DNA of 49,616 nucleotides from an archaeon (GTDB lineage Archaea; Nanobdellota; Nanobdellia; SCGC-AAA011-G17; VGLX01): positions 1-49,616 of the forward strand of contig JAZDEN010000032.1 in NCBI GenBank assembly GCA_043808805.1, given 5' to 3'. The notes beneath the pieces are model-generated. The model did not search any database. It saw only the letters and a list, made by a program, of their open reading frames with translations, and had not been told where the DNA came from. Positions 5,866 through 38,868 of the stretch are shown here, piece after piece (positions within the stretch are counted from its first letter, which is position 1; every line of letters begins with the position of its first letter). Position numbers and translations under genes: made by a program.

Positions 5866-6951
5866 ATGAAAGTTGTAATACAAAAATGCGAAAGCTACGA
5901 AGATGCTGAAAGAGCAGTAGAGGAAGGACTGGAAAAACTAGGCGGGATAGAAGCCTTCATAAAAAAAGGAGATAAAGTCCTGATAAAGCCAAACCTACTC
6001 GGGGCGAGAAAACCCGAAGACTGCGTAACAACACATCCAGAAGTTGTAAGAGCAGTGATAAGACAAATCAAGAAGATAACAGACGAAATAACGATAGGAG
6101 ACTCGCCGGGATTCGTAGGCAACGTAAGAGGATGGGAGACTGTCATCGAGAAAACAGGCATGAAAAAAATAGCAGAAGAGGAAAATGTAAAACTGGAAGC
6201 ACTGAAAACACCAAAAGAGGTTGAGAGCAAGGAATGGATAATAACAAAGAAATTAATGATAGCAGAAGAGACGATGAAATACGACAAGATAGTGAACGTG
6301 GCAAAGCTGAAGACACACAGCCTGACAGTATACACCGGATGCGTAAAGAACATGTTTGGGATAATACCCGGAAGACTGAAGTCAGGAATGCACACAAAAT
6401 TTCAAGACCCATATAACTTCTCAAAAATGCTGCTTGACCTTTACATGGTTAGGAAGCCGGACCTGAACATCATTGACGGAGTCTACGGGATGGAAGGAGA
6501 CGGCCCAGCATCAGGAGACGTAAGACACTTTGGAATAATAGGACTAAGCCAGGACGCACTCGAACTCGACTACGCAATAACCAAAGACACAAAACTCGAA
6601 ATACCGATGATAAGGATAGCAGAAGAAAGAAAGATGATAATGAAAGTTGAAGTAGAAGGCGAGTTCAAAACAGAGATAAAAAAACCAAGCACAGGAATAC
6701 TAACCAGTTACGTGCTGCCGATAGCAGGCAACGTAAGAAATAAATTAACATCAAAGCCTGCGCTGACACAAGAAAGATGCACAAAATGCGAGAGCTGCTA
6801 CAAGATATGCCCTGTCAAGGCAATAAGCATGAACCCTTATCCAGAATTTGATTACTCAAAATGCATAAGATGCTACTGCTGCCATGAGATATGCCCAGAG
6901 AAAGCAATCTACCTCAAAAAAAGCATTGTCCAGAAACTACTTAGGAGATGA
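5866..6951 (+). CDS. DUF362-domain protein with C-terminal 2x[4Fe-4S] ferredoxin domain
   Basis: Two CxxCxxCxxxCP motifs ('CTKCESCYKICP', 'CIRCYCCHEICP'). The N-terminal 'GDKVLIKPNLL' region is DUF362-like. Confidence 0.75.
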   Translation: MKVVIQKCESYEDAERAVEEGLEKLGGIEAFIKKGDKVLIKPNLLGARKPEDCVTTHPEVVRAVIRQIKKITDEITIGDSPGFVGNVRGWETVIEKTGMKKIAEEENVKLEALKTPKEVESKEWIITKKLMIAEETMKYDKIVNVAKLKTHSLTVYTGCVKNMFGIIPGRLKSGMHTKFQDPYNFSKMLLDLYMVRKPDLNIIDGVYGMEGDGPASGDVRHFGIIGLSQDALELDYAITKDTKLEIPMIRIAEERKMIMKVEVEGEFKTEIKKPSTGILTSYVLPIAGNVRNKLTSKPALTQERCTKCESCYKICPVKAISMNPYPEFDYSKCIRCYCCHEICPEKAIYLKKSIVQKLLRR

Positions 6952-8652
6952 AGAGGCATGCTCATGAATCTCACTCAACAAATCGTTAACGAAAGTATAG
7001 ATCTTAACATCATGCGTGACCTTACCATCAAGAGTTCTTATTGCCAAATTCCTTGAATCAACCTCCTTATCACCAACAGTAACCATGTAATTAACCTTCC
7101 TGATCTGGGCATCACGAACCTTCTTGCCAATCGTCTCAGGCCTGTCATCAATCTCAACACGGACACCATTAGCTTCCAACTCAGCCTTAACCTCATTCGC
7201 ATACTTAACACTCCTATCAGTAACAGTCAGTATCCTGACCTGCATAGGAGCGAGCCACAAAGGCAGCTTGCCAGCATAATGCTCAAGCAGGATAGCAATG
7301 AACCTCTCAATCGAACCGAGAATAGTACGGTGGATCATCACAGGGCGGTGCTTCTTACCATCCTTCCCCTCATAAGTAAGGTCGAATTTCTCAGGCATGG
7401 CAAAATCAAGCTGGATGGTAGCGCACTGCCAGGTCCTCCCCAACGAATCCTCGATATGGAAATCAATCTTAGGACCATAAAACGCACCGTCACCAGCATT
7501 AACCTTGAACTTGATGCCAGTGTCCTTCAAGGCAGCCTTCAAGGCATCCTCAGCAGTCTTCCACATCTCAGCAGTGCCAATAGACTTCTTAGGCCTAGTC
7601 GAAAGCTCAAGATGGTAGGGAAGCTTGAAAATCTTATACATGCGATCAGCAAGATTTATGACCCTAATAACCTCATCCTTAATCTGCTCCTCCATGCAAT
7701 AGATGTGGGCATCATCCTGCGTGAAGGCACGAACGCGGAACAAGCCGTTCAAGACACCTGAGAGCTCATGCCTATGCACAAGACCCAGCTCAGCCATCCT
7801 TAATGGGAATTCACGATACGAATGAAGGCCTGTGTTGTAGATCAGAATACTTCCAGGACAGTTCATGGGCTTAACAGCATAATCCTGATTGTCAATCTTA
7901 GTGAAGTACATGTTATCCTTGTAATGATCCCAGTGGCCGGACTTCTCCCACAGCCTCCTGCTCAGGATCATAGGCGTGGAAATCTCGATGTAACCCTCCT
8001 TCTTGTGCTCCTGCCTCCAGAAGTTAATCAGCTCATTCCTGATGATCATACCCCTAGGATGGAAGAACGGAAAACCAGGACCCTCCTCATGCATGCTGAA
8101 AAGGTTAAGTTCCTTACCAAGCCTTATATGGTTACGCTTCTCAGCCTCCTCCCTGTTTTTTAAGTAAGCATCAAGGTCCTCTTTTGAACCGAAAGCAGTG
8201 CCGTAAATACGCTGCAACATGGGATTCTTGGAATCACCACGCCAGTAAGAACCGGCAATCGTAAGAAGCTTGTAGGCCTTAATCTCCTTCGTAGACTTGA
8301 CATGAGGACCCTTGCAGAGGTCATAAAAATTACCGCACTGGTATAGGGTAATCTTACCCTTCAACTCCTTGAGAAGGTCAAGCTTGTAAGGCTCATCCTT
8401 GAGCATTTTTTGTGCCTTCTGCTTTGTAACATCAATCTTCTTGAAAACCAGATTCTGGTCAATAAGCTCATCCATCTTGGTCTCAATCTTCTTCAAATCC
8501 TCAGGAGTGAAGCTCACATTGCCAAAATCATAGTAGAAACCATCCTCAATAGCCGGACCAATGCCCAATTTGGCTTTAGAGTACAGCAATTTGACAGCAT
8601 AAGCCAGTATGTGAGATGTACTGTGCCTTATCTTCTCTAACTTACCATCCAT
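6937..8652 (-). CDS. thrS: threonyl-tRNA synthetase, bacterial-type N2 editing domain, no TGS domain
   Basis: 'HSTSHILA' and 'CKGPHV' are tRNA_SAD/editing motifs. The class II core includes 'FRVRAFTQDDAHIY', and an anticodon-binding C-terminus is present. The real start is taken as the ATG at 8652 (MDGKLEKIRH..), because the upstream 63 codons of the ORF are Phe-rich junk. Confidence 0.9.
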   Translation of the reverse strand: MDGKLEKIRHSTSHILAYAVKLLYSKAKLGIGPAIEDGFYYDFGNVSFTPEDLKKIETKMDELIDQNLVFKKIDVTKQKAQKMLKDEPYKLDLLKELKGKITLYQCGNFYDLCKGPHVKSTKEIKAYKLLTIAGSYWRGDSKNPMLQRIYGTAFGSKEDLDAYLKNREEAEKRNHIRLGKELNLFSMHEEGPGFPFFHPRGMIIRNELINFWRQEHKKEGYIEISTPMILSRRLWEKSGHWDHYKDNMYFTKIDNQDYAVKPMNCPGSILIYNTGLHSYREFPLRMAELGLVHRHELSGVLNGLFRVRAFTQDDAHIYCMEEQIKDEVIRVINLADRMYKIFKLPYHLELSTRPKKSIGTAEMWKTAEDALKAALKDTGIKFKVNAGDGAFYGPKIDFHIEDSLGRTWQCATIQLDFAMPEKFDLTYEGKDGKKHRPVMIHRTILGSIERFIAILLEHYAGKLPLWLAPMQVRILTVTDRSVKYANEVKAELEANGVRVEIDDRPETIGKKVRDAQIRKVNYMVTVGDKEVDSRNLAIRTLDGKVTHDVKIYTFVNDLLSEIHEHASSSPK

Positions 8653-12822: not shown

Positions 12823-12932
12823 ACCCCCTAAAAAACTGGTGTTAATTAACCTTTCCTTGAACTAGCGTTAGTTTTAAATATATCAGAAAATATAAATCAG
12901 AGCATGAAAAAGAGGGAGGAAATTCTAGGTAG

Positions 12933-14402
12933 ATGAAACTCAAAGTAAAATACGTCAACCTGTCAACTGGAGGGCCGATAGTATCGGTGATAAACGAAGA
13001 GGACGCAAAAAAACTAGACCTATACGCACTAGACAGGGTTAAGATAAAAAGATTGAAGACAGAAAAGGAAATAGTAGCAGTGGTTGATATCTCCACAAGG
13101 GGTGTAAGGCCCGGGGAAATAGGACTATTTGATGAAACAATAAAAAAACTAGACATTCCCGAAGGGACACATGTGGAAGTTGAAGAAACAGAAAGACCAA
13201 AATCACTCGACCTGATAAGAAAGAAACTTGACGGAGCCCCGCTGACAAAGGAAGAGATGGACACAATAGTGGAAGACGTCTTGGAAAACAACCTAAGCGA
13301 ACCAGAAATAACATACTTCATAAGCGGGGCATACACAAGAGGGATGAACCTCCAAGAGGCAACGTACCTGACACAGGCAATAGTTGACAGGAGCTACAGG
13401 ATAAAACTAGACAGAAAAATAGTGCTGGACAAACACTGCGCAGGAGGAGTCCCAGGCAACAGGACAACAATGGTAATAGTACCGATAATAGCAGCATTAG
13501 GATACACAATGCCAAAAACAAGCTCAAGATCGATAACATCAGCATCAGGGACCGCGGACACGATGGAAGTTCTGGCCCCAGTATGCCTGAGCCATGAAAA
13601 AATAATAAAAACAATAAAAGAGACAAACGCATGCATGATATGGGAAGCAGCGCTAAACCCCATGGGGGTTGACGAGCTGTTCATAAAGATAAGACACCCA
13701 CTAAGCCTAGACCCGGAAGGATTATTACTATCAAGCGTCATGGCAAAGAAAAAATCAGTGGGAGCAACACATGTTCTTATAGATTTACCATTTGGAGAAG
13801 GAGCAAAGTTCACATACAAATCAGCAAAAATACTGAGAATGAAATTCATAAAGATAGGAAAACAGCTGGGAATAAAAGTAAAAGTGATACTCACTGACGG
13901 ATCACAGCCAATAGGGAACGGAGTAGGACCAGTGTGGGAGGCAAGAGACGTCCTAACAGTGCTGCAAGGAGCAGGACCAAACGATTTAAGAGATAAGTCA
14001 ATAATGATGGCAACAATACTGCTGAAGATGGCAGGACTGAAAAACGCAGAGGGAAAAGTCATAGAAGCGATAGACTCAGGAGCAGCATACCAGAAAATGT
14101 TAGAGATAATACAAGCACAGGGAGGAAGCAAGAACATCAAACTGCCAAAACCAAAATACTTCCACCAGATAATGTCAAAAAAAGCAGGGACAGTAATAAA
14201 AATAGACAACAAGCTAATAGCAAAGATAGCGAGGATAGCAGGAGCGCCAAAAGACAAAGCAGCAGGACTATACCTCAGAGTACACAAAGGAATAAGAGTA
14301 AGGAAGGGAAAAGAACTGTTCACGATATACGCTGAAAACAAAAAGAAACTTGAATATGCTAAGAAAATAGCAGAACACCACGAGGCGATACACGTATCAT
14401 GA
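12933..14402 (+). CDS. deoA: AMP phosphorylase (archaeal thymidine-phosphorylase-family enzyme with N-terminal extension)
   Basis: 489 aa. An N-terminal ~80-aa extra domain precedes a glycosyl-transferase family 3/PYNP core ('DKHCAGGVPGNRTT', 'SSRSITSASGTADTME'). Confidence 0.8.
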   Translation: MKLKVKYVNLSTGGPIVSVINEEDAKKLDLYALDRVKIKRLKTEKEIVAVVDISTRGVRPGEIGLFDETIKKLDIPEGTHVEVEETERPKSLDLIRKKLDGAPLTKEEMDTIVEDVLENNLSEPEITYFISGAYTRGMNLQEATYLTQAIVDRSYRIKLDRKIVLDKHCAGGVPGNRTTMVIVPIIAALGYTMPKTSSRSITSASGTADTMEVLAPVCLSHEKIIKTIKETNACMIWEAALNPMGVDELFIKIRHPLSLDPEGLLLSSVMAKKKSVGATHVLIDLPFGEGAKFTYKSAKILRMKFIKIGKQLGIKVKVILTDGSQPIGNGVGPVWEARDVLTVLQGAGPNDLRDKSIMMATILLKMAGLKNAEGKVIEAIDSGAAYQKMLEIIQAQGGSKNIKLPKPKYFHQIMSKKAGTVIKIDNKLIAKIARIAGAPKDKAAGLYLRVHKGIRVRKGKELFTIYAENKKKLEYAKKIAEHHEAIHVS

Positions 14403-28322: not shown

Positions 28323-29162
28323 TTAAAATTTCTGAGAAAAAATCCTTTTCTCGATGAACTTTCTCATCTCATTCACAAAAGCAACAGTCCTCTCCCTGTA
28401 AACATCATATTCCCTGCCCTCAACATCCTTAACCTGCCTGTGAACAATCTGCTTAAAAACAAGGTAGTTATCCCTCATGATCTTAGAATACTTACCCTTC
28501 AACAGGCCACGCCTAACCATCTTCTCATCAAGCATGTCAGCAATATGATCAGGAGACGGGGGAATCTCACCCAGACACATCAAAGCAGCGTGAGCAGCAT
28601 CAACAGAGGCCCAATACAAGTCAACCATAGCAGACAGGATGTGATCCCTCGACCTGCCGACAGAGGCAGGAGCCATGGTGAAATAGTTGTAGATGGACTC
28701 CTTAGTAGGCCTGATCCTCCCGTTATCAAGCAAGGACTGCAACGGGTCAAAAATGCCTGTGTCAATCAGAGCCATACCATAACGCAAGATATTAATCGCA
28801 ACTGGGTCACCAGCACGCACATACTCCCAGAACGAACTCAAACGCATGGACTGGATGTGCAAACGCTCACCGTCCTTCATATCAGAGAGAACCTTCTCAA
28901 CAATAATCCTGTAAGTCTGGACCAGGTCACGAGTAAGATTAATGCTGACATCATCAATGACTATCAGCACGTCAATGTCAGCCTCCTTCGCAAGCTTCTC
29001 CTTCTTCGCAACAGAACCGAAAAGAACAAGTGACTTTATAAAGGGACCAAACTCCTTGTAAACCCTACCTGCAAAATCCCGAGCAATATCAAACTCTTCT
29101 TTGGGATAATGAATATCAATGTTCCTCTTTCTTTTCTCAATCCTGAACTCCATCAGTATCAA
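28323..29162 (-). CDS. nucleotidyltransferase-domain protein with helical (HEPN/KNTase-C-like) C-terminal domain
   Basis: 'LVLFGSVAKKEKLAKEADIDVLIVIDD' is the GS..DxD signature. It begins 9 nt after the stop of the upstream gene. Confidence 0.7.
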   Translation of the reverse strand: MILMEFRIEKRKRNIDIHYPKEEFDIARDFAGRVYKEFGPFIKSLVLFGSVAKKEKLAKEADIDVLIVIDDVSINLTRDLVQTYRIIVEKVLSDMKDGERLHIQSMRLSSFWEYVRAGDPVAINILRYGMALIDTGIFDPLQSLLDNGRIRPTKESIYNYFTMAPASVGRSRDHILSAMVDLYWASVDAAHAALMCLGEIPPSPDHIADMLDEKMVRRGLLKGKYSKIMRDNYLVFKQIVHRQVKDVEGREYDVYRERTVAFVNEMRKFIEKRIFSQKF

Positions 29163-29171
29163 CCCCTTTTT

Positions 29172-31019
29172 TCATTCCAAACCAATCCCAGACCAGAAAG
29201 GACCTGTCTTCTCAACACCCCTGTACTCGTCAGACGGAGCATACTTGCCTACGATATACTGGGGAGACCTAGTCCTCCCAAAATACGAATCCTCAATATC
29301 AGACCACTTAAAGCTGCGATAGACAGGAGAGCTGGCAAGAGAGCCCCAAGCACCTGTCATAGCGGTGTAAAGCTGGTCCTGCGCCTGAGCACCGGGCTCA
29401 GCAATCATAGGACCAATATCAGCATCCTTAATCTTCTTTATGAAATCCTTAATAGGAGCACTACCCATACCAGGAGTTAGATGCTCATCGTAATAACCAA
29501 AGTTATCCGAAATGTGAACGTGACCTATAATACCCTCCTTAGCAAGCTTCTCAGCCTCCTTAGTAACCCACTTGTTGAAACGCTTATCATAGTCATTCCT
29601 CGACTCACCCTCATCACGCTTGAAATACTTCTTCCAGGTATTCGCGTGACCAACATCAAAAGTAGCCTTGATATGGTCTTCAGAAACCCTCCTCGCCTCA
29701 GACTCTGCCATACCACGCTCCTTAACAAGACGGTCTGTCATCTCCTTCCTTGAATTAACAATAAGCTCCCTCAATTCCCTCGGATGACTGCCATACTGGC
29801 CAGACTCAGGAAGAAGATTCTCAGGAGCCACAAAAAGAGGCTTCTTCAGCTTCATCTCATCTTCGACATCATAAGCGTAAATACCCACACGAGCAAGATT
29901 CTTAGCAGACTCCTTCTTACCATACTCCTCAAGCGGGACAATCTCACCAATCTGCTGCTCGGCCATAGCCCTCTGCTGACCATAACTAACAGCAGAATCC
30001 TCCAACTGTTTGAGATGCAACTCACGAGATTTAACTGCTTTGTTAAGATATGAAATAGGATCATCCAAAAACTTCATGTACTGCTCACTATTCGGTGGGG
30101 GGGCACCGCCTTGTATCTCCTTAACAGCCTGAATAGCCTGAAACTTTGCCAACGGAGGATTCTCCTTTAACACATCGGTTATCCTCCCTCTAATCTCCTT
30201 AAGATAACCAAGCTTCTCCTTGTCCTCATTATAACTATGAGACCATCTCCTCTCCTCAGAACTAAGCCTGGTAAGCTGCTCCGCGAGAATCTTCTGCTTG
30301 TAAAACTCCTTAGCAGCAGTCTGAGAATCCTTAATCCCCTCTTCTTTCTGAAACTGACCAAAATCAACCATCTTGAACTTATACTGCTCATTCTCATATA
30401 TGGGCTCGCCCTTATGCTCACCCTCCTTATAAGTCTGCAATATAGGAATCTTCGTATCCTTTGTCAAACCAGCCTCAATCCTACCGGTACGACTGTTAAC
30501 AAGATAAACAGGGGCCTTCTCCCTCTCACCAGGATACATCTCAAACTCCTTGTACTTCTCAGAAACCTCCCTCGGGAACTCATCGCTGTGAAAAACAACA
30601 GGACCACCACCAGCAACATCAGCAGCAAAATCAATAGTACGCTCCATCTCATGGATAGAACGCTCAGCAGCCTCAGGAGTAAATGCATTACTTCTCGCAT
30701 CCAAACCCGACAAGCCAGAAAAACCAAGAGATGCGTGAGTAGAAACAACAACCTCATTTATCTTCGAAAGCTGCCTCATAGCCTCCCTCTTATCCTTACC
30801 AAACATCTCAGGAGTAGTCTGATTACCACCAAGGGAACCTTTAGCCGTACCAGTAAAACCAAGCTCAACAGCATGAGCACCAGCACGGATTCCTGCCTGC
30901 AAATTATCAAGAACATCAGCCATACCAAGATAAGAAACACCAATGTCCTTTGCACTAATATCGAGATTATCAGCTGACTGCCTGTCCAGAGAATGCCAGT
31001 AATCAGAGGTAAATGCCAT
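29172..31019 (-). CDS. xylose-isomerase-like / Endo IV-like TIM-barrel protein interrupted by a ~290-aa charged insertion
   Basis: The N-terminal part has 'AHAVELGF', 'STHASLGF' and 'VVFHSDEF'. The C-terminal part has 'FDVGHAN' and 'GHVHISDNFGYYDEHLTPGMGSAPI'. A long Lys/Glu-rich segment with no motif lies between them. Confidence 0.6.
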   Translation of the reverse strand: MAFTSDYWHSLDRQSADNLDISAKDIGVSYLGMADVLDNLQAGIRAGAHAVELGFTGTAKGSLGGNQTTPEMFGKDKREAMRQLSKINEVVVSTHASLGFSGLSGLDARSNAFTPEAAERSIHEMERTIDFAADVAGGGPVVFHSDEFPREVSEKYKEFEMYPGEREKAPVYLVNSRTGRIEAGLTKDTKIPILQTYKEGEHKGEPIYENEQYKFKMVDFGQFQKEEGIKDSQTAAKEFYKQKILAEQLTRLSSEERRWSHSYNEDKEKLGYLKEIRGRITDVLKENPPLAKFQAIQAVKEIQGGAPPPNSEQYMKFLDDPISYLNKAVKSRELHLKQLEDSAVSYGQQRAMAEQQIGEIVPLEEYGKKESAKNLARVGIYAYDVEDEMKLKKPLFVAPENLLPESGQYGSHPRELRELIVNSRKEMTDRLVKERGMAESEARRVSEDHIKATFDVGHANTWKKYFKRDEGESRNDYDKRFNKWVTKEAEKLAKEGIIGHVHISDNFGYYDEHLTPGMGSAPIKDFIKKIKDADIGPMIAEPGAQAQDQLYTAMTGAWGSLASSPVYRSFKWSDIEDSYFGRTRSPQYIVGKYAPSDEYRGVEKTGPFWSGIGLE

Positions 31020-31057: not shown

Positions 31058-32488
31058 TTACCAACTCAACATACTATGAGTCTTCTTGTAAACATCATAA
31101 AGCGTGTAAACATGCTCAGCAACAACCTTAGCAGCGATATCCTCCTGCTCACGCTCATAATAAGACAACTTCTTCTTATTCCCTGAATCCCACTTAAGAC
31201 CGCCAAACAAATCACCAAAACCCTTTATAACAGATGTGAAAGGGCTTATAACATCCTTCATGTAAAAAGTACCTGAAGACTTCTTATCTTCAGCATCCTT
31301 GACAATCTCACCAGCCTCAATAAGATAATTCTTCAACTCATCACCCAGAGAATCAAGAGAAGAGTCAAGAGACCTCAACAACTCCAGGTCCTCAAGCTCC
31401 TTACCCTTCTTGTAACCCTCAAGCTCTTCAGGAGTCAGAACAAAACCCTGAATGGTTATCTCAGTACGGCCCGCGTGAACAGCAGCCCTCTGAAATTCCT
31501 TCTGGAAAGCCATCTCAGGAAGCGTAACAAACCTAAACAAGACACGAATACAGGGAATCTTCTCAGTGAACTCACGCTCAACCATACCCCTATCAGTCAG
31601 CAACTCATAAGTCTTCTTGTAAGCCATCAACTCAAGCTGAATAAGACTGGTCTCAAAGGCAGAAACCATCTCAGGAGCGTTGCTCTGCTGCAACTCCAAC
31701 CTCTGGATGTTCCTCAAAAAAGGCTTAACCCACTTTATGTACATCCTCATAGACTGATAATGCTGGTTCAAGGCCTTCAACCTGAAATTCTTACCCCACT
31801 TCAACTCCTGGTAGGTCTTCTCCTTCCAGATGTAATACTCAGTAAGCTTATGCTTCAAAACACTACGAACACGAGAGTTGATACCCTCATCCTTCAACGA
31901 ATTAACAGCCCTATCAACACCAGCGCTGCCGTTGATAGGGTTAATCTTGAAAAAAAGATCGGGAATAATCACAAAACCGAGCTTACGAGACAAACCAAAA
32001 ATAGATGTTGCATTCTCAGCACCCCCCTCAACAACAGTAGTCCAGATATTCTTCAAAGCAATCTCAGCAGCCTCATCACCCTTAAGGCTCTTCACATAAT
32101 ACTCTAACCTCTCATCCATAATCCTAAGCTCACGAACCATCTGAAAAACACTCTTAGTCATACTACCAATAGTGGCCAGATACTGGGAGACACGCTCCTG
32201 CTGACGCTGCTTCCTCTCCTCAGCAGCACCAAAAAAAGTAGACATCTCAGTCGCAGAAAAAACATCAGAGGTCTTCTCAACCACATAACCAAGACCGTTC
32301 TCATGCTGCAGGAAATTAACAATCCAGAAATATGAAGGCTCAGCAGACGAGCCCATCTGCTCAACAATAAGCTTCTGCTGCTTACTGGGCTTTATATCGG
32401 AACCCAAAACCCTAGGCTTCTTAGGAGCCTCCTCACCAGGCCCCAATACACTGCCCAAAGCATTCTTGAATAATTTACTCTTAGCCAT
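31058..32488 (-). CDS. hypothetical protein (476 aa), apparently mostly helical
   Basis: The start is taken at ATG 32488 (MAKSKLFKNALG..), preceded by AGAGGT and a TATA-like 'AAAGATTTATAAAT'. No family recognised. Confidence 0.55.
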   Translation of the reverse strand: MAKSKLFKNALGSVLGPGEEAPKKPRVLGSDIKPSKQQKLIVEQMGSSAEPSYFWIVNFLQHENGLGYVVEKTSDVFSATEMSTFFGAAEERKQRQQERVSQYLATIGSMTKSVFQMVRELRIMDERLEYYVKSLKGDEAAEIALKNIWTTVVEGGAENATSIFGLSRKLGFVIIPDLFFKINPINGSAGVDRAVNSLKDEGINSRVRSVLKHKLTEYYIWKEKTYQELKWGKNFRLKALNQHYQSMRMYIKWVKPFLRNIQRLELQQSNAPEMVSAFETSLIQLELMAYKKTYELLTDRGMVEREFTEKIPCIRVLFRFVTLPEMAFQKEFQRAAVHAGRTEITIQGFVLTPEELEGYKKGKELEDLELLRSLDSSLDSLGDELKNYLIEAGEIVKDAEDKKSSGTFYMKDVISPFTSVIKGFGDLFGGLKWDSGNKKKLSYYEREQEDIAAKVVAEHVYTLYDVYKKTHSMLSW

Positions 32489-32579
32489 GTTACCTCTTTT
32501 TATTAGGTAGATGAATCGATAATTTATAAATCTTTTCACACAGAAAAACTTATTAACCATATAAGGCACTCAACAGAAT

Positions 32580-33080
32580 ATGTTTCCCGGGAAAGAGACG
32601 AGATTAAAAATATTCGCAAACAGGGTGATCCAAGAAGGTCCTTTTGACATAAACCTCATATATAAGAACCTCAAAGAGTGGTTTGACAGCCACAAATACG
32701 GGTACCACGAGCTTGAGAACACAACAAGCTTCAAGCCGAAAGGGGCTGAGATAAAGCTCAAGATGAGGGGAGAAAAAGAGGTAACCGAATACTACAAATT
32801 CTCAATAACCGTAGCATTCCTCATACTCGAGACAGAAAAAATAAAGATAGACGGAAAGGTCCTTGACAACGGAAAGCTTGAGGCAAGAGTAGAGGTTTTT
32901 ATGGAAATGGACTACAAGAAAAAATTCGAAAAATCAAAATTCGCAAAATTCATAAGATTCGTCTACAACAACTACATAATAAAACAGCAGATCTCCTCAG
33001 AATATGGGGGAAAAGCATACGGGGACGGAATGAGCCTATTTGACACCATAAAAGACACAATAGGACTGTACACACAATAA
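32580..33080 (+). CDS. hypothetical protein, paralog A of a tandem triplet (166 aa)
   Basis: Shares 'FD...LY..L..WF....Y', '.I.L...G.K.V..YYKF.I.V.F' and 'KFIRFVYNNYI' blocks with the next two genes. Confidence 0.6.
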   Translation: MFPGKETRLKIFANRVIQEGPFDINLIYKNLKEWFDSHKYGYHELENTTSFKPKGAEIKLKMRGEKEVTEYYKFSITVAFLILETEKIKIDGKVLDNGKLEARVEVFMEMDYKKKFEKSKFAKFIRFVYNNYIIKQQISSEYGGKAYGDGMSLFDTIKDTIGLYTQ

Positions 33081-33093
33081 AAAAAGAGGATAG

Positions 33094-33597
33094 ATGGCAG
33101 ACACAGAAAAAATATGGGTGACACCTCCGATGCCCGGAGGGATAAAAGTAAGACACGTAGGTTACCTAGACCTTGGAGCATTCTACACATGGCTACAGAG
33201 ATGGTTCGACTTCAACGGTTACTTCGGGGGGGACTTCGAGAGATTCTACGAAGAACACATAGACCAGGGAGGAAAGAAAATAGAGATAAGATGGGCTGGA
33301 AAGAAAAAGAAAAACCCGTACTACACATACAACATAGAGGTCATATTCCTGCTGGTTGCAGTGAACAAGGTAGAGGTACAGATGGGAGAGAAGAAGATAA
33401 AGATAGAGAAGGGAGACTTCGAGATTAGAATTGGAGGGTATGTCGAAAAGGGAATGAAAGGAGCAGGATTCCTGAGGAACATATACGAGAACATAGTAGC
33501 AAAGAAAAACGTAGACCTCTACAAGAAAGAGTGTTACGACAAGGTTTACGGGCTGCAGGAAGACATAAAAAAATACTTCAACCAATACGTACAATAA
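33094..33597 (+). CDS. hypothetical protein, paralog B of a tandem triplet (167 aa)
   Basis: 'LDLGAFYTWLQRWFDFNGY', 'KIEIRWAGKKKKNPYYTYNIEVIF' and 'FLRNIYENIV' align with A and C. Confidence 0.6.
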   Translation: MADTEKIWVTPPMPGGIKVRHVGYLDLGAFYTWLQRWFDFNGYFGGDFERFYEEHIDQGGKKIEIRWAGKKKKNPYYTYNIEVIFLLVAVNKVEVQMGEKKIKIEKGDFEIRIGGYVEKGMKGAGFLRNIYENIVAKKNVDLYKKECYDKVYGLQEDIKKYFNQYVQ

Positions 33598-33634
33598 AAA
33601 GATTTAAATAAAAAAAAGACAAAGGAATAATCAA

Positions 33635-34126
33635 ATGCCAGAATTCGACTATGTGCTAGGACCCCTGAAGGTTTCACAAGAAGCAACCTTCGACATGAAA
33701 GAACTGTACAAACTGGGAAGGGCCTGGTACAGCAAGCACGGCTACGACTTCTACGAAAAAGAATACATATCCTCATTCAAGGAAGAGGGAAAGAACGCAT
33801 CCATAAAATGGGAAGGCGACAAGAAAGTTGACGACTACATCAAATTCCACGTGGACGTAAGAGTCAAATTCAAGAACCTAAGGGAAATACAGGGAAAGAA
33901 AAAGATCATGAACATAGGAGAGGCAAGCTTCAGCGTAGAGTCATACATAGAAAGGGACTACGAATCAAACTGGGATGTCGGATTCATGACCAAATTCATA
34001 AGAGGAGTGTATGACACATTCGTGATAAGGGGAAAAATAGACAAAGACAAACAAAGACTGGCGAGCGAAGCAAACGAGCTATACCATGAGATAAGGACAT
34101 TCCTGAAGGTACATCAACCCCGATAA
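33635..34126 (+). CDS. hypothetical protein, paralog C of a tandem triplet (163 aa)
   Basis: 'FDMKELYKLGRAWYSKHGY', 'ASIKWEGDKKVDDYIKFHVDVRVKF' and 'KFIRGVYDTFVI' align with A and B. Confidence 0.6.
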   Translation: MPEFDYVLGPLKVSQEATFDMKELYKLGRAWYSKHGYDFYEKEYISSFKEEGKNASIKWEGDKKVDDYIKFHVDVRVKFKNLREIQGKKKIMNIGEASFSVESYIERDYESNWDVGFMTKFIRGVYDTFVIRGKIDKDKQRLASEANELYHEIRTFLKVHQPR

Positions 34127-34171: not shown

Positions 34172-35476
34172 ATGAAACAGGGCAGAATAACACCCTACAT
34201 AGCAGCAGGACTGATATTCCTAGGCAGCCAAGCATACGCCCAGACTGTAAAACAACAATTCTTCGACACAGTAATAGAATACGCACAGAAACAAGGGCTC
34301 AGACTAAATAAGCTCAATCCCCAAAATATAGAGATAAAAGACGAGGTGAAAAAGGACGGCGAGAAGGTATACGGCACATTCAACAAGATAACAAGAAAAA
34401 TAGAGATAATAAAGTCAAAACTTGAAAACATAGCAACGATAGGGATACATGAAGCAGCACACGAGAAGAAATACGACCCTACAAGGGAAACAGAGCTTTG
34501 GTTCGAAAAAATACCCTACAAAGTGGAAAAAACAGAAGAGGGTTATACAGCAACAGCAGACCCCAAAAGAGTTCAAGAAGGCAAGATAGCAAAAGGGCTG
34601 GAAAAAGTCATAATCAGGGAAGGATCCAGAACACCAATGCTGTATGATGACAAAGGAAAGTTCCTAGCATCATTCGAAATAATCAAGATAATAGGAGATG
34701 ACACAAAAACATTGAGAATAATGACAGCAGAACACCCCATAAACGGGGTGCAAGGGAAGTTCTACTACGAGAAAGAAAACAACGAATTATACTACATACC
34801 ATCCGACGTGATGGGATTCCAGAACGAGATAGTAGCAAGGCTATACGAACAGATATTCAGCGGGTACTACGTAGGAAAAGTGGAAAATCCCACAACCACC
34901 CAGGACAAAACCCAACTTGGAAAATCACTCACATACCTAACAACACTCTACACTCTGACACCCGAACAACAAAAGATGTCAAAAAACTCCGAAGAAGCGT
35001 ACAAGAGAATAAACGAAATGGCACTCATAGGGATAGTAGACAAGACAATAGAGGTAGGAGGGAAAGACTTCAAACAGATGATGGAAGACCTACAAGACAA
35101 CCAATTCGCAAAAAACATAGCACTGGCATCAGTCCTCATGCCCGAACACGACTTCAAAGCATTACTGGACATATACGACTCAACAAACAAGGAAGAGATA
35201 AACAAGCTCATGAGCCAATACAACAAAGAACTCCAAGAAACGAGAAAGATAGGGAACATATCTGAAGAACAGGTAATGCTTGAATACATAAAAAGATTCA
35301 ACCTCAACGAAAACGAAGCATGGTATGTAATGGCAAAAACAAGAGCGAGAAGCTTTGACGAAATATTCAGAAGCCAAGAAAAACTGAAACACATAGAAAA
35401 AATAAAACAGGCAAACCTCGAAAAGATGATGGAACAATTCAAGGGAAAAGAGGAAAGCATAACAAAAGGTTTATAA
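34172..35476 (+). CDS. secreted hypothetical protein with an HExxH motif
   Basis: Signal peptide 'ITPYIAAGLIFLGSQAYA'. 'IGIHEAAHEKKY' is an HExxH motif near residue 93. The rest is not recognised. Confidence 0.55.
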   Translation: MKQGRITPYIAAGLIFLGSQAYAQTVKQQFFDTVIEYAQKQGLRLNKLNPQNIEIKDEVKKDGEKVYGTFNKITRKIEIIKSKLENIATIGIHEAAHEKKYDPTRETELWFEKIPYKVEKTEEGYTATADPKRVQEGKIAKGLEKVIIREGSRTPMLYDDKGKFLASFEIIKIIGDDTKTLRIMTAEHPINGVQGKFYYEKENNELYYIPSDVMGFQNEIVARLYEQIFSGYYVGKVENPTTTQDKTQLGKSLTYLTTLYTLTPEQQKMSKNSEEAYKRINEMALIGIVDKTIEVGGKDFKQMMEDLQDNQFAKNIALASVLMPEHDFKALLDIYDSTNKEEINKLMSQYNKELQETRKIGNISEEQVMLEYIKRFNLNENEAWYVMAKTRARSFDEIFRSQEKLKHIEKIKQANLEKMMEQFKGKEESITKGL

Positions 35477-35499: not shown

Positions 35500-35943
35500 A
35501 TGAAACTAAAAAGGCTCATAACCTCAGCCATAATCGTAATAATAATTGACCAACTGACAAAAATACTTCTAACAAAAAAACAATACAACATCTTCGGCAT
35601 CAACCTGATAAACTACACAGAAAACACAGGAGCCGCATTCAGCATACTTGAAGGCTACAGATGGCTCTTCATAACAGTATCATCCATAGCTATCATAATA
35701 CTCCTTTACTATGCAACAACGCTGGGACAAGAAGAAAAAAAACTGGAAATCCCACTGGGAATACTGATAGGAGGGATGGCAGGCAACCTAATAGACAGAA
35801 TACTTCTCGGTTACGTAAGAGACTTCATAGACCTACAGATATGGGCCATCTTCAACCTAGCAGACACAGCAGTATTCATGGCAATAATAATACTATGCGT
35901 TTATCTGATAAGAAAAAGCTTCAGGAAGACTACTTATCACTGA
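35500..35943 (+). CDS. lspA: lipoprotein signal peptidase (signal peptidase II)
   Basis: 'NTGAAFS', 'GGMAGNLIDR', 'VRDFID' and 'IFNLADTAV' are present, with 4 TM segments. Confidence 0.8.
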   Translation: MKLKRLITSAIIVIIIDQLTKILLTKKQYNIFGINLINYTENTGAAFSILEGYRWLFITVSSIAIIILLYYATTLGQEEKKLEIPLGILIGGMAGNLIDRILLGYVRDFIDLQIWAIFNLADTAVFMAIIILCVYLIRKSFRKTTYH

Positions 35944-37893: not shown

Positions 37894-38868
37894 TCAAATA
37901 CTAGGACCTTTTGGGATGTGAACCTTAGTCCCTTTAGGCACGAAATCACTTCTGATTGCAGGGTTGACCATCTTCAGGTCGGTAACCTTCACATTGTGCA
38001 ACTTAGCAACCTTATTCAGAGGAACATCCTTACCAGCAACATACTCCCCAACCCTCAAACTCGACATAGGCTTTGCCTTGCTGAAATTAATGTTAAACCT
38101 GGAAGGATCAGAGAATATCTGCATCTTAGCGGCAACCTGAAGTATGTAGTCACGAGACTCATAAGGGATCATCGCATTCTTAACAATGTCCGCATGACCC
38201 AGAATTTTACTAAGATTATCCAAAGTCCAGGTAGGACCAGCGTTATAAGCTATAAGCCCAACAACATGATCCTTGAAATAATCTATGTACTTCTTCATGT
38301 ACTTACTCGAAGCCACTATAGCCTTAGGATCAAAACGCTCATCCACGTTGTGGTTAACGGTCAGTTCAACCTCACGGGCAGCAACAGGCATGAGACCTCC
38401 AAGACCTGCAGCACCCTTATGGGACTCCGCATGGGTATTACCCTCAGACTCCTGAGCAACATAAGCCTTAATGAAGTTGATATCATAACCAGTCTCCCTG
38501 CTAGCCTGCTCAAAATAGTCATCATAAGCAGACAGCTTTGAAAGAATCAACTCAAGCTCCTTCCTGGAATCCTCTGAACCAACCAACTTCTCAATCCTGG
38601 CCTTAACCTTAGAACCCAAATTATGCTTTGTTATACCTCTATTAAACGTCCTGTCAACCCTGTTCTCAAGAGTCTCCTCCAGCCTGTATACAGCATTCTT
38701 AGGGTTGAAGGTAAGAGCACTTGAAGGATGTATAGAGCTGGGGAGTATTAGAGTTGCTGCAAACAGAGGGATAACAAGATACTTTTTAAAAGAGCTAGAA
38801 CTATTCTTTTCTTCTACATGATTGTTACGCCAGTATGACGCACACCCATTAAAATCACTTCGAACCAT
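37894..38868 (-). CDS. membrane-anchored lytic transglycosylase (SLT domain) with C-terminal LysM
   Basis: 'AQESEGNTHAESHKGAAGLGGLMP' and 'IAYNAGPT' are SLT family 1 motifs. The C-terminal 'YVAGKDVPLNKVAKLHNVKVTDLKMVNP....GTKVHIP' is LysM-like. An N-terminal TM is present. Confidence 0.75.
   Translation of the reverse strand: MVRSDFNGCASYWRNNHVEEKNSSSSFKKYLVIPLFAATLILPSSIHPSSALTFNPKNAVYRLEETLENRVDRTFNRGITKHNLGSKVKARIEKLVGSEDSRKELELILSKLSAYDDYFEQASRETGYDINFIKAYVAQESEGNTHAESHKGAAGLGGLMPVAAREVELTVNHNVDERFDPKAIVASSKYMKKYIDYFKDHVVGLIAYNAGPTWTLDNLSKILGHADIVKNAMIPYESRDYILQVAAKMQIFSDPSRFNINFSKAKPMSSLRVGEYVAGKDVPLNKVAKLHNVKVTDLKMVNPAIRSDFVPKGTKVHIPKGPSI

Follow-up and report, generated by a model that had tools for sequence, protein, structure and literature searches.

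Three consecutive genes on the forward strand of contig JAZDEN010000032.1 (assembly GCA_043808805.1), a 49,616-nucleotide stretch of DNA from a very small, symbiotic DPANN archaeon of the Woesearchaeota group which is referred to throughout as the window, encode short proteins, here named A, B and C, that are members of no known family and together make up a new, uncharacterised and clade-specific module. The genes are real, selected and anciently triplicated, and part of the domain which they encode is probably shared with the 476-residue product of the gene that diverges from them, here named BIG. The preferred reading of the triplet, which is advanced tentatively, is that A, B and C are the non-interchangeable subunits of one lineage-specific, non-enzymatic, cytoplasmic hetero-oligomer, probably together with BIG.

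The Nanoarchaeia (Woese- and Pacearchaeota) are abundant, uncultivated and host-dependent archaea in which most lineage-specific genes are unannotated, and unannotated, or 'dark', families are common in the genomes of DPANN archaea. The present family stands out among these because it is both widespread and highly conserved and because it can now be delimited as a paralogous module of four genes, such that four adjoining 'hypothetical proteins' with one common module become one testable complex. It is new in the sense that no kinship with any described family or solved fold can be detected, and not in that of a demonstrated new mechanism. The module is widespread (1,829 small-protein clusters and at least 522 BIG clusters), strongly conserved and, judged by source names, confined to the Nanoarchaeia, and it therefore likely underlies some clade-defining cell biology.

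The triplet and its age

Gene A lies at 32580..33080 (+, 166 aa), gene B at 33094..33597 (+, 167 aa) and gene C at 33635..34126 (+, 163 aa), such that the three open reading frames (ORFs) follow one another with spacers of 13 nt (A–B) and 37 nt (B–C). These coordinates, lengths and spacers are those given in a first-pass annotation, which had also proposed that the three proteins are paralogs, and the similarity between them is indeed significant: pairwise BLASTP aligns A with C at E=4e-22 (74 bits, 31% identity), A with B at E=7e-11 (44 bits) and B with C at E=1e-10 (43 bits). The three shared sequence blocks that had been described are likewise seen in the multiple alignment, as FD..LY..L..W[FY]...GY, I.I.W.G.KK...Y..F.I.V.F and F[IL]R.[VI]Y, save that A carries M in place of W in the second. 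A hidden Markov model (HMM) of the family matches A at E=2.4e-43, B, the most conserved orthogroup, at E=1.9e-51 and C, the copy that was modelled, at E=4e-49, and finds no further match over the window.

In composition the three proteins are rich in aromatic residues (15–17% F+Y+W) and mildly basic, with isoelectric points (pI) of 8.5–9.1 and 28–30 K+R residues against 23–28 D+E. A hydropathy scan finds neither a membrane helix nor a signal peptide in any of them, the highest 19-residue Kyte–Doolittle value being 0.64–1.17, as compared with 2.29 for LspA as a control. They are soluble alpha+beta proteins, in accordance with the first-pass annotation. B carries an N-terminal extension with the conserved motif EKIWVTPPMPGG.K.RHVG.LDL, its C-terminal QYVQ is conserved also, and the sequence GAGG stands 5 nt 5' of its ATG.

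The triplet is not peculiar to the window. It is found in relatives of the window (L001–L005, L007–L012, L014, L019 and L020) and in further genomes (L099 and L100), and the A-B-C order thus recurs in at least nine non-redundant Woesearchaeota/Nanoarchaeia genomes, namely those of the window, L001, L007, L010, L012, L014, L020, L099 and L100. Across all fetched loci, as searched with the family HMM, there are exactly three adjacent members on the same strand and in the same order wherever the sequence suffices, with spacers of ~1–14 nt and 36–37 nt (1–37 nt overall), and no triplet locus was seen from which one member had been lost. In other lineages of the Nanoarchaeia the same neighbours are accompanied by one copy or by two, and where there is a single copy it is C-like, scoring best with the HMM specific to C.

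HMMs specific to A, B and C split the family into separate orthogroups. The fastest-evolving is A, whose orthologs are 29–72% identical (72% between close relatives, 29–41% between distant ones); those of C are 42–76% identical, and those of B 39–83% (76–83% between close relatives, 39–64% between distant ones), a constraint which includes the N-terminal extension and which makes B as strongly conserved as BIG. Paralogs within one genome are 18–30% identical. Since orthologs between genomes are at least as similar as paralogs within a genome, the triplication is, on these sequence comparisons, older than the divergence of the triplet-bearing lineages. The earlier suggestion that the triplet is old is further upheld by the persistence of separate A, B and C orthogroups, their order unchanged, in genomes between which ortholog identity is no more than 29–42%.

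Extent of the small-protein family

A word-indexed search with C yielded 11 proteins, a search with a profile built from the triplet and its orthologs yielded 51, and an exhaustive profile search of 1.84 billion representatives yielded 1,829 clusters, defined at 50% identity, at E<=1e-3 (1,142 at E<=1e-10). The best 150 of these 1,829 clusters are all short proteins of 135–211 aa, mostly 160–180 aa, each with a one-domain profile match, and no partner domain is listed among them. Every homolog with a source name comes from a metagenome-assembled genome of Candidatus Nanoarchaeia, Nanoarchaeota or Woesearchaeota; the restriction to this clade is judged from such name-bearing homologs, the best 150 clusters themselves carrying no taxonomy. 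Among 108 diverse members, only W31, E41, Y68 and Y126 (C numbering) are at least 90% conserved. All four are present in A, B and C, which match the family profile (alignment A4) over their full length, and no catalytic-type constellation of residues is found among the conserved positions of the 108 members.

The first-pass annotation had recognised no family for these proteins, and none emerges from Pfam, NCBIfam, PHROGs, PADLOC, PDB sequence or Foldseek searches. Against the first four of these, nothing above threshold was obtained with the triplet proteins, with BIG or with the 434-aa protein encoded downstream of C; Pfam gave no match over the 108 diverse members, with no weak family recurring among them. 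For the small family, PADLOC yielded PycC alone (E=0.006 over 32 residues), no PHROGs match fell below 0.026, and sequence-profile searches of the PDB with alignments A1, A4 (the small family) and A6 (the BIG family) gave nothing better than E=0.22. Moreover, tblastn of B and BIG against 50,697 GenBank phage records returned no match, a B-type profile found no relative in IMG/VR, and no description of the small-protein family was found in full-text literature searches.

Two kinds of assignment were considered for the family and rejected. As a PD-(D/E)xK nuclease it lacks the D...(D/E)xK motif, and no nuclease appears among its Foldseek matches; sub-threshold matches only were obtained, to DUF2161 (0.14), to NA-iREase1 in 3 of the 108 members and to EcoRV in one. 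As a known anti-phage defence or phage protein family it is negative in PADLOC, PHROGs, the phage records and IMG/VR alike. At L093 (6062–6763) and L094 (243–944) there is a weakly scoring, longer member, a ~233-aa ORF divergently adjoining BIG, which may be an intermediate or a further subfamily.

Predicted structure of C

An AlphaFold2 model of C, made from a 51-sequence alignment, has a mean predicted local distance difference test score (pLDDT) of 80.3 and a predicted template modelling score (pTM) of 0.71. By DSSP its elements are beta1 (3–19), alpha1 (21–34), beta2 (38–49), beta3 (52–64), beta4 (69–86), beta5 (91–107) and alpha2 (117–156), which is to say that the order is beta-alpha-beta4-alpha, in two layers, with five unusually long antiparallel strands of 12–18 residues and a 40-residue C-terminal helix. 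The alpha-beta-alpha layout previously predicted for the three proteins thus stands insofar as it describes a soluble alpha+beta protein; the model, with its two layers, is not a three-layer sandwich. The beta-alpha-beta4-alpha order is that of the TBP-like fold class of SCOP (TBP, TATA-binding protein), which includes the Bet v 1/START proteins.

Foldseek comparison of the model with the PDB and BFVD gives no match at E<=1e-3. The best PDB match is PYL3 (3oji; E=3.3e-3, template modelling (TM) score 0.21), and the highest TM score relative to the query (TMq) is 0.37. PYR/PYL or START-superfamily structures account for 11 of the 34 top PDB matches, at TM scores of 0.15–0.31 and root-mean-square deviations (RMSD) of 9–19 Å, and these are a hint from the model, not a match. 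Indeed, superposition of C on helix-grip domains gives a TMq of 0.15–0.31, below the ~0.5 taken as the mark of a shared fold, and none of the SRPBCC-clan Pfam profiles (START, Bet_v_1, Polyketide_cyc, AHSA1 and others) matches A, B or C at E<=1, nor, among the families listed, any of the 108 members at E<=5.

BIG and a probable shared module

BIG (31058..32488, −; 476 aa) is divergent from the triplet. Its start is placed at the ATG at 32488, which fits both the lengths of its homologs (477–481 aa) and the database gene call; the mechanically called ORF is 27 codons longer, beginning with a GTG at 32569 (503 aa), and would leave 10 nt before A. The intergenic region between BIG and A (32489..32579) is 91 nt long and A+T-rich, contains a palindromic TATA-like element, ATTTATAAAT, and is presumed from its sequence to be the promoter region for both transcription units. 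Homologs of BIG form at least 522 clusters, of which the named ones are nearly all from Woese-, Pace- or Nanoarchaeota; one cluster has a bacterial name (Thermodesulfovibrionia), which is suspected to be a case of mis-binning. There is no Pfam match to BIG, a census of 62 members included, in which no weak family recurs, and no PDB sequence match.

The AlphaFold2 model of BIG (pLDDT 74.5) begins with a beta-alpha-beta unit (36–79), followed by two long helices (84–135 and 205–264) which form a hairpin with small helices at its tip; thereafter come five strands (281–351), helices (353–391), a disordered stretch and a conserved C-terminal helix. The most conserved segment of the protein, VEGG..N..S.YGL...GF...PDLFF, lies at the tip of the hairpin (residues 162–180; 31948–32005 of the window). 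It is also the most hydrophobic stretch of BIG, with a 19-residue Kyte–Doolittle value of 1.28, which is under the threshold for a membrane helix, and in the model the tip may be a membrane- or partner-contact loop. BIG has no N-terminal hydrophobic segment, signal peptide or anchor, this same 1.28 being its maximum, and is predicted to be cytoplasmic. Foldseek of the model against the PDB gives no match at E<=1e-3 (the best TMq over the C and BIG searches is 0.39); START and carotenoid-binding START domains are also among its weak matches.

BIG and the small proteins appear to have a module in common. When the two family alignments (A4 and A6) are compared with hhalign, the beta4-beta5-alpha2 part of the small proteins falls on BIG ~311–391 with a probability of 45% (P=2.2e-4), and when BIG is limited to residues 272–400 the probability is 74% (P=2.9e-5, score 34.6), as compared with scores of 12.3 for a reversed alignment and <=18.9 for 30 block-shuffled alignments. 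The BIG HMM matches small proteins, mostly of B type, down to E=3.3e-6 (246 sequences), pairing its positions ~305–396 with small-protein residues ~62–160; the small-family HMM in turn matches BIG proteins at residues 313–356, so that the reciprocal HMMER matches are in constant register. Within this register G340, which is invariant in BIG, is paired with an invariant glycine of the small proteins in the region of the beta4-beta5 turn (G95 in C), and the predicted secondary structures of the two families agree over the aligned region. It is probable, therefore, that BIG ~306–395, a beta-hairpin and helix, is homologous to the C-terminal two-thirds of the small proteins. An extension of this homology to the N-terminal beta-alpha-beta unit of BIG was considered and is unsupported: deletion of the helical hairpin lengthens the alignment as far as the N-terminal helix with the score unchanged. 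Since removal of the hairpin adds no score, it is unproven, however attractive, that BIG consists of a complete small-type domain into which a hairpin has been inserted.

Genomic setting

The locus is cellular and belongs to a DPANN archaeon, since its neighbours are ordinary chromosomal genes and no relative of B or BIG was found among phage records, nor any of B in IMG/VR. The other genes of the window include those for pyruvate phosphate dikinase, MacB/FtsX permeases, an Obg-like GTPase, an EndoIII-type glycosylase, a Glu/Gln-tRNA synthetase, an SLT transglycosylase and signal peptidase II; within the window there are no tRNA genes or Rfam matches. The G+C content is ~34–45%, and from 4 to 48 kb there is a strong and persistent AT skew of ~0.1–0.5, being ~0.3–0.5 where genes are on the + strand and ~0.11–0.14 where they are on the − strand. 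Since the skew is positive over both, it is partly independent of the coding strand.

In a survey of 72 non-redundant BIG loci, with BIG identities down to 38%, BIG is accompanied by a ~606-aa AP_endonuc_2 TIM barrel in 39, by LspA in 38, by a ~268-aa NTP_transf_2 protein in 23 and by the small family in 19. BIG and the small family occur in at least four arrangements: the divergent triplet of the window (BIG< A> B> C>); a single copy upstream of BIG past lspA (S> lspA< BIG>), where in several loci a 108-aa gene follows lspA; one divergent adjacent copy; and two copies. In the window, BIG is followed on its own strand by the xylose-isomerase-like TIM barrel (29172–31019, −; 615 aa; AP_endonuc_2, E=1.9e-15), which contains a long K/E-rich insert, and 3' of both of these lies an NTP_transf_2 nucleotidyltransferase (28323–29162, −; 279 aa), identified by its library matches. 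This run, BIG > TIM barrel > nucleotidyltransferase, recurs in Nanoarchaeia loci (the 39 and 23 of 72 given above), such that the synteny is conserved; a functional tie between the three is unproven. At L001 the TIM barrel is only 332 aa long and is accompanied by a separate 152-aa gene. The 278-aa and 394-aa neighbours of BIG at L017, considered as counterparts of the window's nucleotidyltransferase and 434-aa protein, respectively, are unrelated to them.

On the other side, between C and lspA, is the gene for the 434-aa protein (34172..35476, +), which has a signal-like hydrophobic segment (MKQGRITPYIAAGLIFLGSQAYAQ) at its N-terminus and matches no Pfam family. This accessory gene occurs only in close relatives of the window, its counterpart in L007 encoding 456 aa, and L001, L099 and L100 lack it. 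The following lspA (35500..35943, +; Peptidase_A8, E=4e-32) encodes signal peptidase II, that is, a bacterial-type lipoprotein signal peptidase in an archaeon and near the triplet; the gene adjoins BIG in 38 of the 72 loci. At L099 (lspA 6495–6917) and L100 (lspA 7032–7457) the stop of C overlaps the start of lspA by 4 nt, which suggests co-transcription and translational coupling at these two loci.

Two other features of the region may be recorded. At 37894–38868 (−) the window encodes the SLT lytic transglycosylase-domain protein (324 aa; E=5e-16), which has a hydrophobic N-terminal segment and, as read from its sequence, could be a peptidoglycan hydrolase aimed at bacteria. At L007, in a related Woesearchaeota genome, a D5_N/Pox_D5 primase-helicase gene (12861–14117) stands amid small ORFs ~4 kb 3' of the triplet, in what may be an integrated mobile element; the gene is absent from the window.

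A proposed hetero-oligomer and its alternatives

The reading of A, B and C as subunits of one complex is favoured because their number and order are fixed, the three orthogroups are separately conserved, B is under strong constraint, a module is probably shared with BIG, and BIG and the small family are found together in several arrangements of genes. The complex is taken to be non-enzymatic because there is neither a catalytic motif nor a fused enzymatic domain. On this reading an ancestral single-copy protein would have associated with itself, its long edge strands being the probable contact; once triplicated, the copies would have become obligate and non-interchangeable partners, A-B-C, which would bind to the homologous module of BIG or assemble together with it. 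The helical hairpin of BIG would then project its conserved, moderately hydrophobic tip, which could touch the membrane or another partner, and the complex as a whole would act as a scaffold or carrier, not as an enzyme. The first-pass annotation had offered a hetero-oligomer or three specificity variants. Of these, obligate subunits agree better than fast-evolving specificity variants with the unvarying copy number and order and with the strong conservation, B for instance at 55–83% identity between genomes.

Several observations weigh against this reading, which is accordingly held at somewhat less than an even chance. At many BIG loci the small family is not represented within 7 kb. The genes for GluRS (glutamyl-tRNA synthetase), a PUA protein, EndoIII, LspA, BIG, the TIM barrel, the nucleotidyltransferase and pyruvate phosphate dikinase are broadly syntenic, and because the whole region is so, the proximity of BIG to the small genes in itself says little about function; it could reflect no more than their origin by local duplication. 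The homology between the two is itself only probable (45–74% by hhalign) and covers only the C-terminal two-thirds of the small domain. Finally, the weak Foldseek matches lean towards the ligand-binding Bet v 1/START proteins, which are usually monomers. An alternative is that A, B and C have unrelated functions, being clustered through tandem duplication in a small and slowly rearranging genome, and that the likeness to BIG is a functionless relic of partial duplication. The strong general synteny of the region across the Nanoarchaeia, the many BIG loci without a nearby small-family gene and the sufficiency of one or two copies in other lineages would all accord with this. It is nevertheless unlikely, given that order, short spacers and three orthogroups have been kept while orthologs are only 29–42% identical, that B is very strongly constrained, N-terminal extension included, and that no triplet-bearing locus is seen to have lost a member.

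The Foldseek matches bear on a different possibility, that the triplet encodes binders or carriers of hydrophobic ligands such as lipids, with a helix-grip-like domain (Bet v 1/START-like, TBP-like fold), the three being affinity variants that act alone or in a complex. DPANN cells are thought to take membrane lipids from their hosts, and the modelled beta-alpha-beta4-alpha order with its 40-residue C-terminal helix is that of the fold class containing Bet v 1 and START; 11 of the 34 top matches of C are PYR/PYL/START structures, and START types are found also for the independent BIG model; the proteins are 15–17% aromatic, with near-invariant residues that consist of W, Y, Y and one E; and the triplet adjoins lspA, an enzyme of membrane lipoprotein processing, with the 4-nt overlap in L099 and L100. 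Yet no match is significant (best E=3.3e-3, TM 0.15–0.31, RMSD 9–19 Å), the model has five strands where Bet v 1 has seven, no SRPBCC profile of Pfam matches any of the 108 members even at E<=5, the adjacency to lspA is part of the general syntenic block, and fixed copy number with high conservation is atypical of specificity variants. Lipid binding as the primary role would therefore be improbable, roughly a one-in-five prospect. Much more doubtful is the binding of nucleic acid by the exposed face of the curved beta-sheet, in the manner of the TBP saddle, with the paralogs tiling a longer surface. The element order is that of a TBP repeat, the pI is 8.5–9.1 and there is a weak match to the TBP-like 4jhy; but the net charge is small (28–30 K+R against 23–28 D+E), there is no Pfam match to TBP or any other DNA- or RNA-binding family, the 4jhy match has a probability of 0.38 and a TM score of 0.22, and no nucleic-acid enzymes are specifically linked. 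A basic pI is, moreover, common in A+T-rich genomes. These alternatives are partly compatible with the favoured hetero-oligomer, which could also bind lipid. Carried furthest, such a combination would yield a hetero-oligomeric machine of A, B, C and BIG, specific to DPANN archaea and associated with the membrane, which would be built from a helix-grip-like domain not seen before and would handle hydrophobic cargo such as lipids from the host or, ahead of LspA, prolipoproteins. It would be the prokaryotic counterpart, by its logic and not by descent, of multi-paralog lipid-transfer complexes of the ERMES type, and we regard it as a long shot.

Comparison with known systems

By element order alone, the model of C has the same two-layer beta-alpha-beta4-alpha arrangement as the TBP-like fold, whose repeats or paralogs are known to form larger sheets by edge-to-edge joining. 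The small-family domain is, however, ~165 aa long as compared with ~90 aa for each TBP repeat, and has no Pfam TBP match; the 'TBP-like' Bacteroides protein 4jhy is an insignificant Foldseek match (E=0.045, probability 0.38, TM 0.22). The Bet v 1/START/PYR-PYL (SRPBCC) proteins, which furnish the most frequent of the weak Foldseek matches to C, are alike in being small, soluble and alpha+beta and in having a strand at the N-terminus, then a helix, and an antiparallel sheet on which a long C-terminal helix packs, but they have seven strands and two N-terminal helices where C is modelled with five very long strands and one helix. The length of the strands of C was the reason for considering the TULIP/SMP lipid-transfer fold also, and this was set aside, since none of the top 50 Foldseek matches is to a BPI, SMP or Takeout structure. 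A contractile-injection or phage-tail system (tube and sheath) was likewise rejected: matches to T4 gp15 are of low probability, the locus is without baseplate or spike genes, and there are no phage or IMG/VR homologs.

For BIG, the nearest likeness is to the periplasmic adaptors EmrA/HlyD, in which, as in BIG, a beta domain is interrupted by a long alpha-helical hairpin and which provide its top Foldseek matches (4tko and 8zar). These matches are at E=0.024–0.1 and TM 0.14–0.24, and BIG has no signal peptide, anchor or HlyD Pfam match; on the grounds of signal or anchor, profile and superposition alike, its assignment as an HlyD-type adaptor was rejected. At the level of the whole module, the comparison that can be drawn is with heteromeric assemblies of diverged paralogs of one small domain, such as the SMP subunits of ERMES, the Sm/Lsm rings and the proteasome. 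The likeness is one of analogy only, since neither in sequence nor in structure was a similarity to any of them found and the top 50 Foldseek matches listed include no SMP, BPI or Sm structure, but the logic is the same, namely that of a fixed number of one-domain paralogs together with a larger protein which contains the module and an extension.

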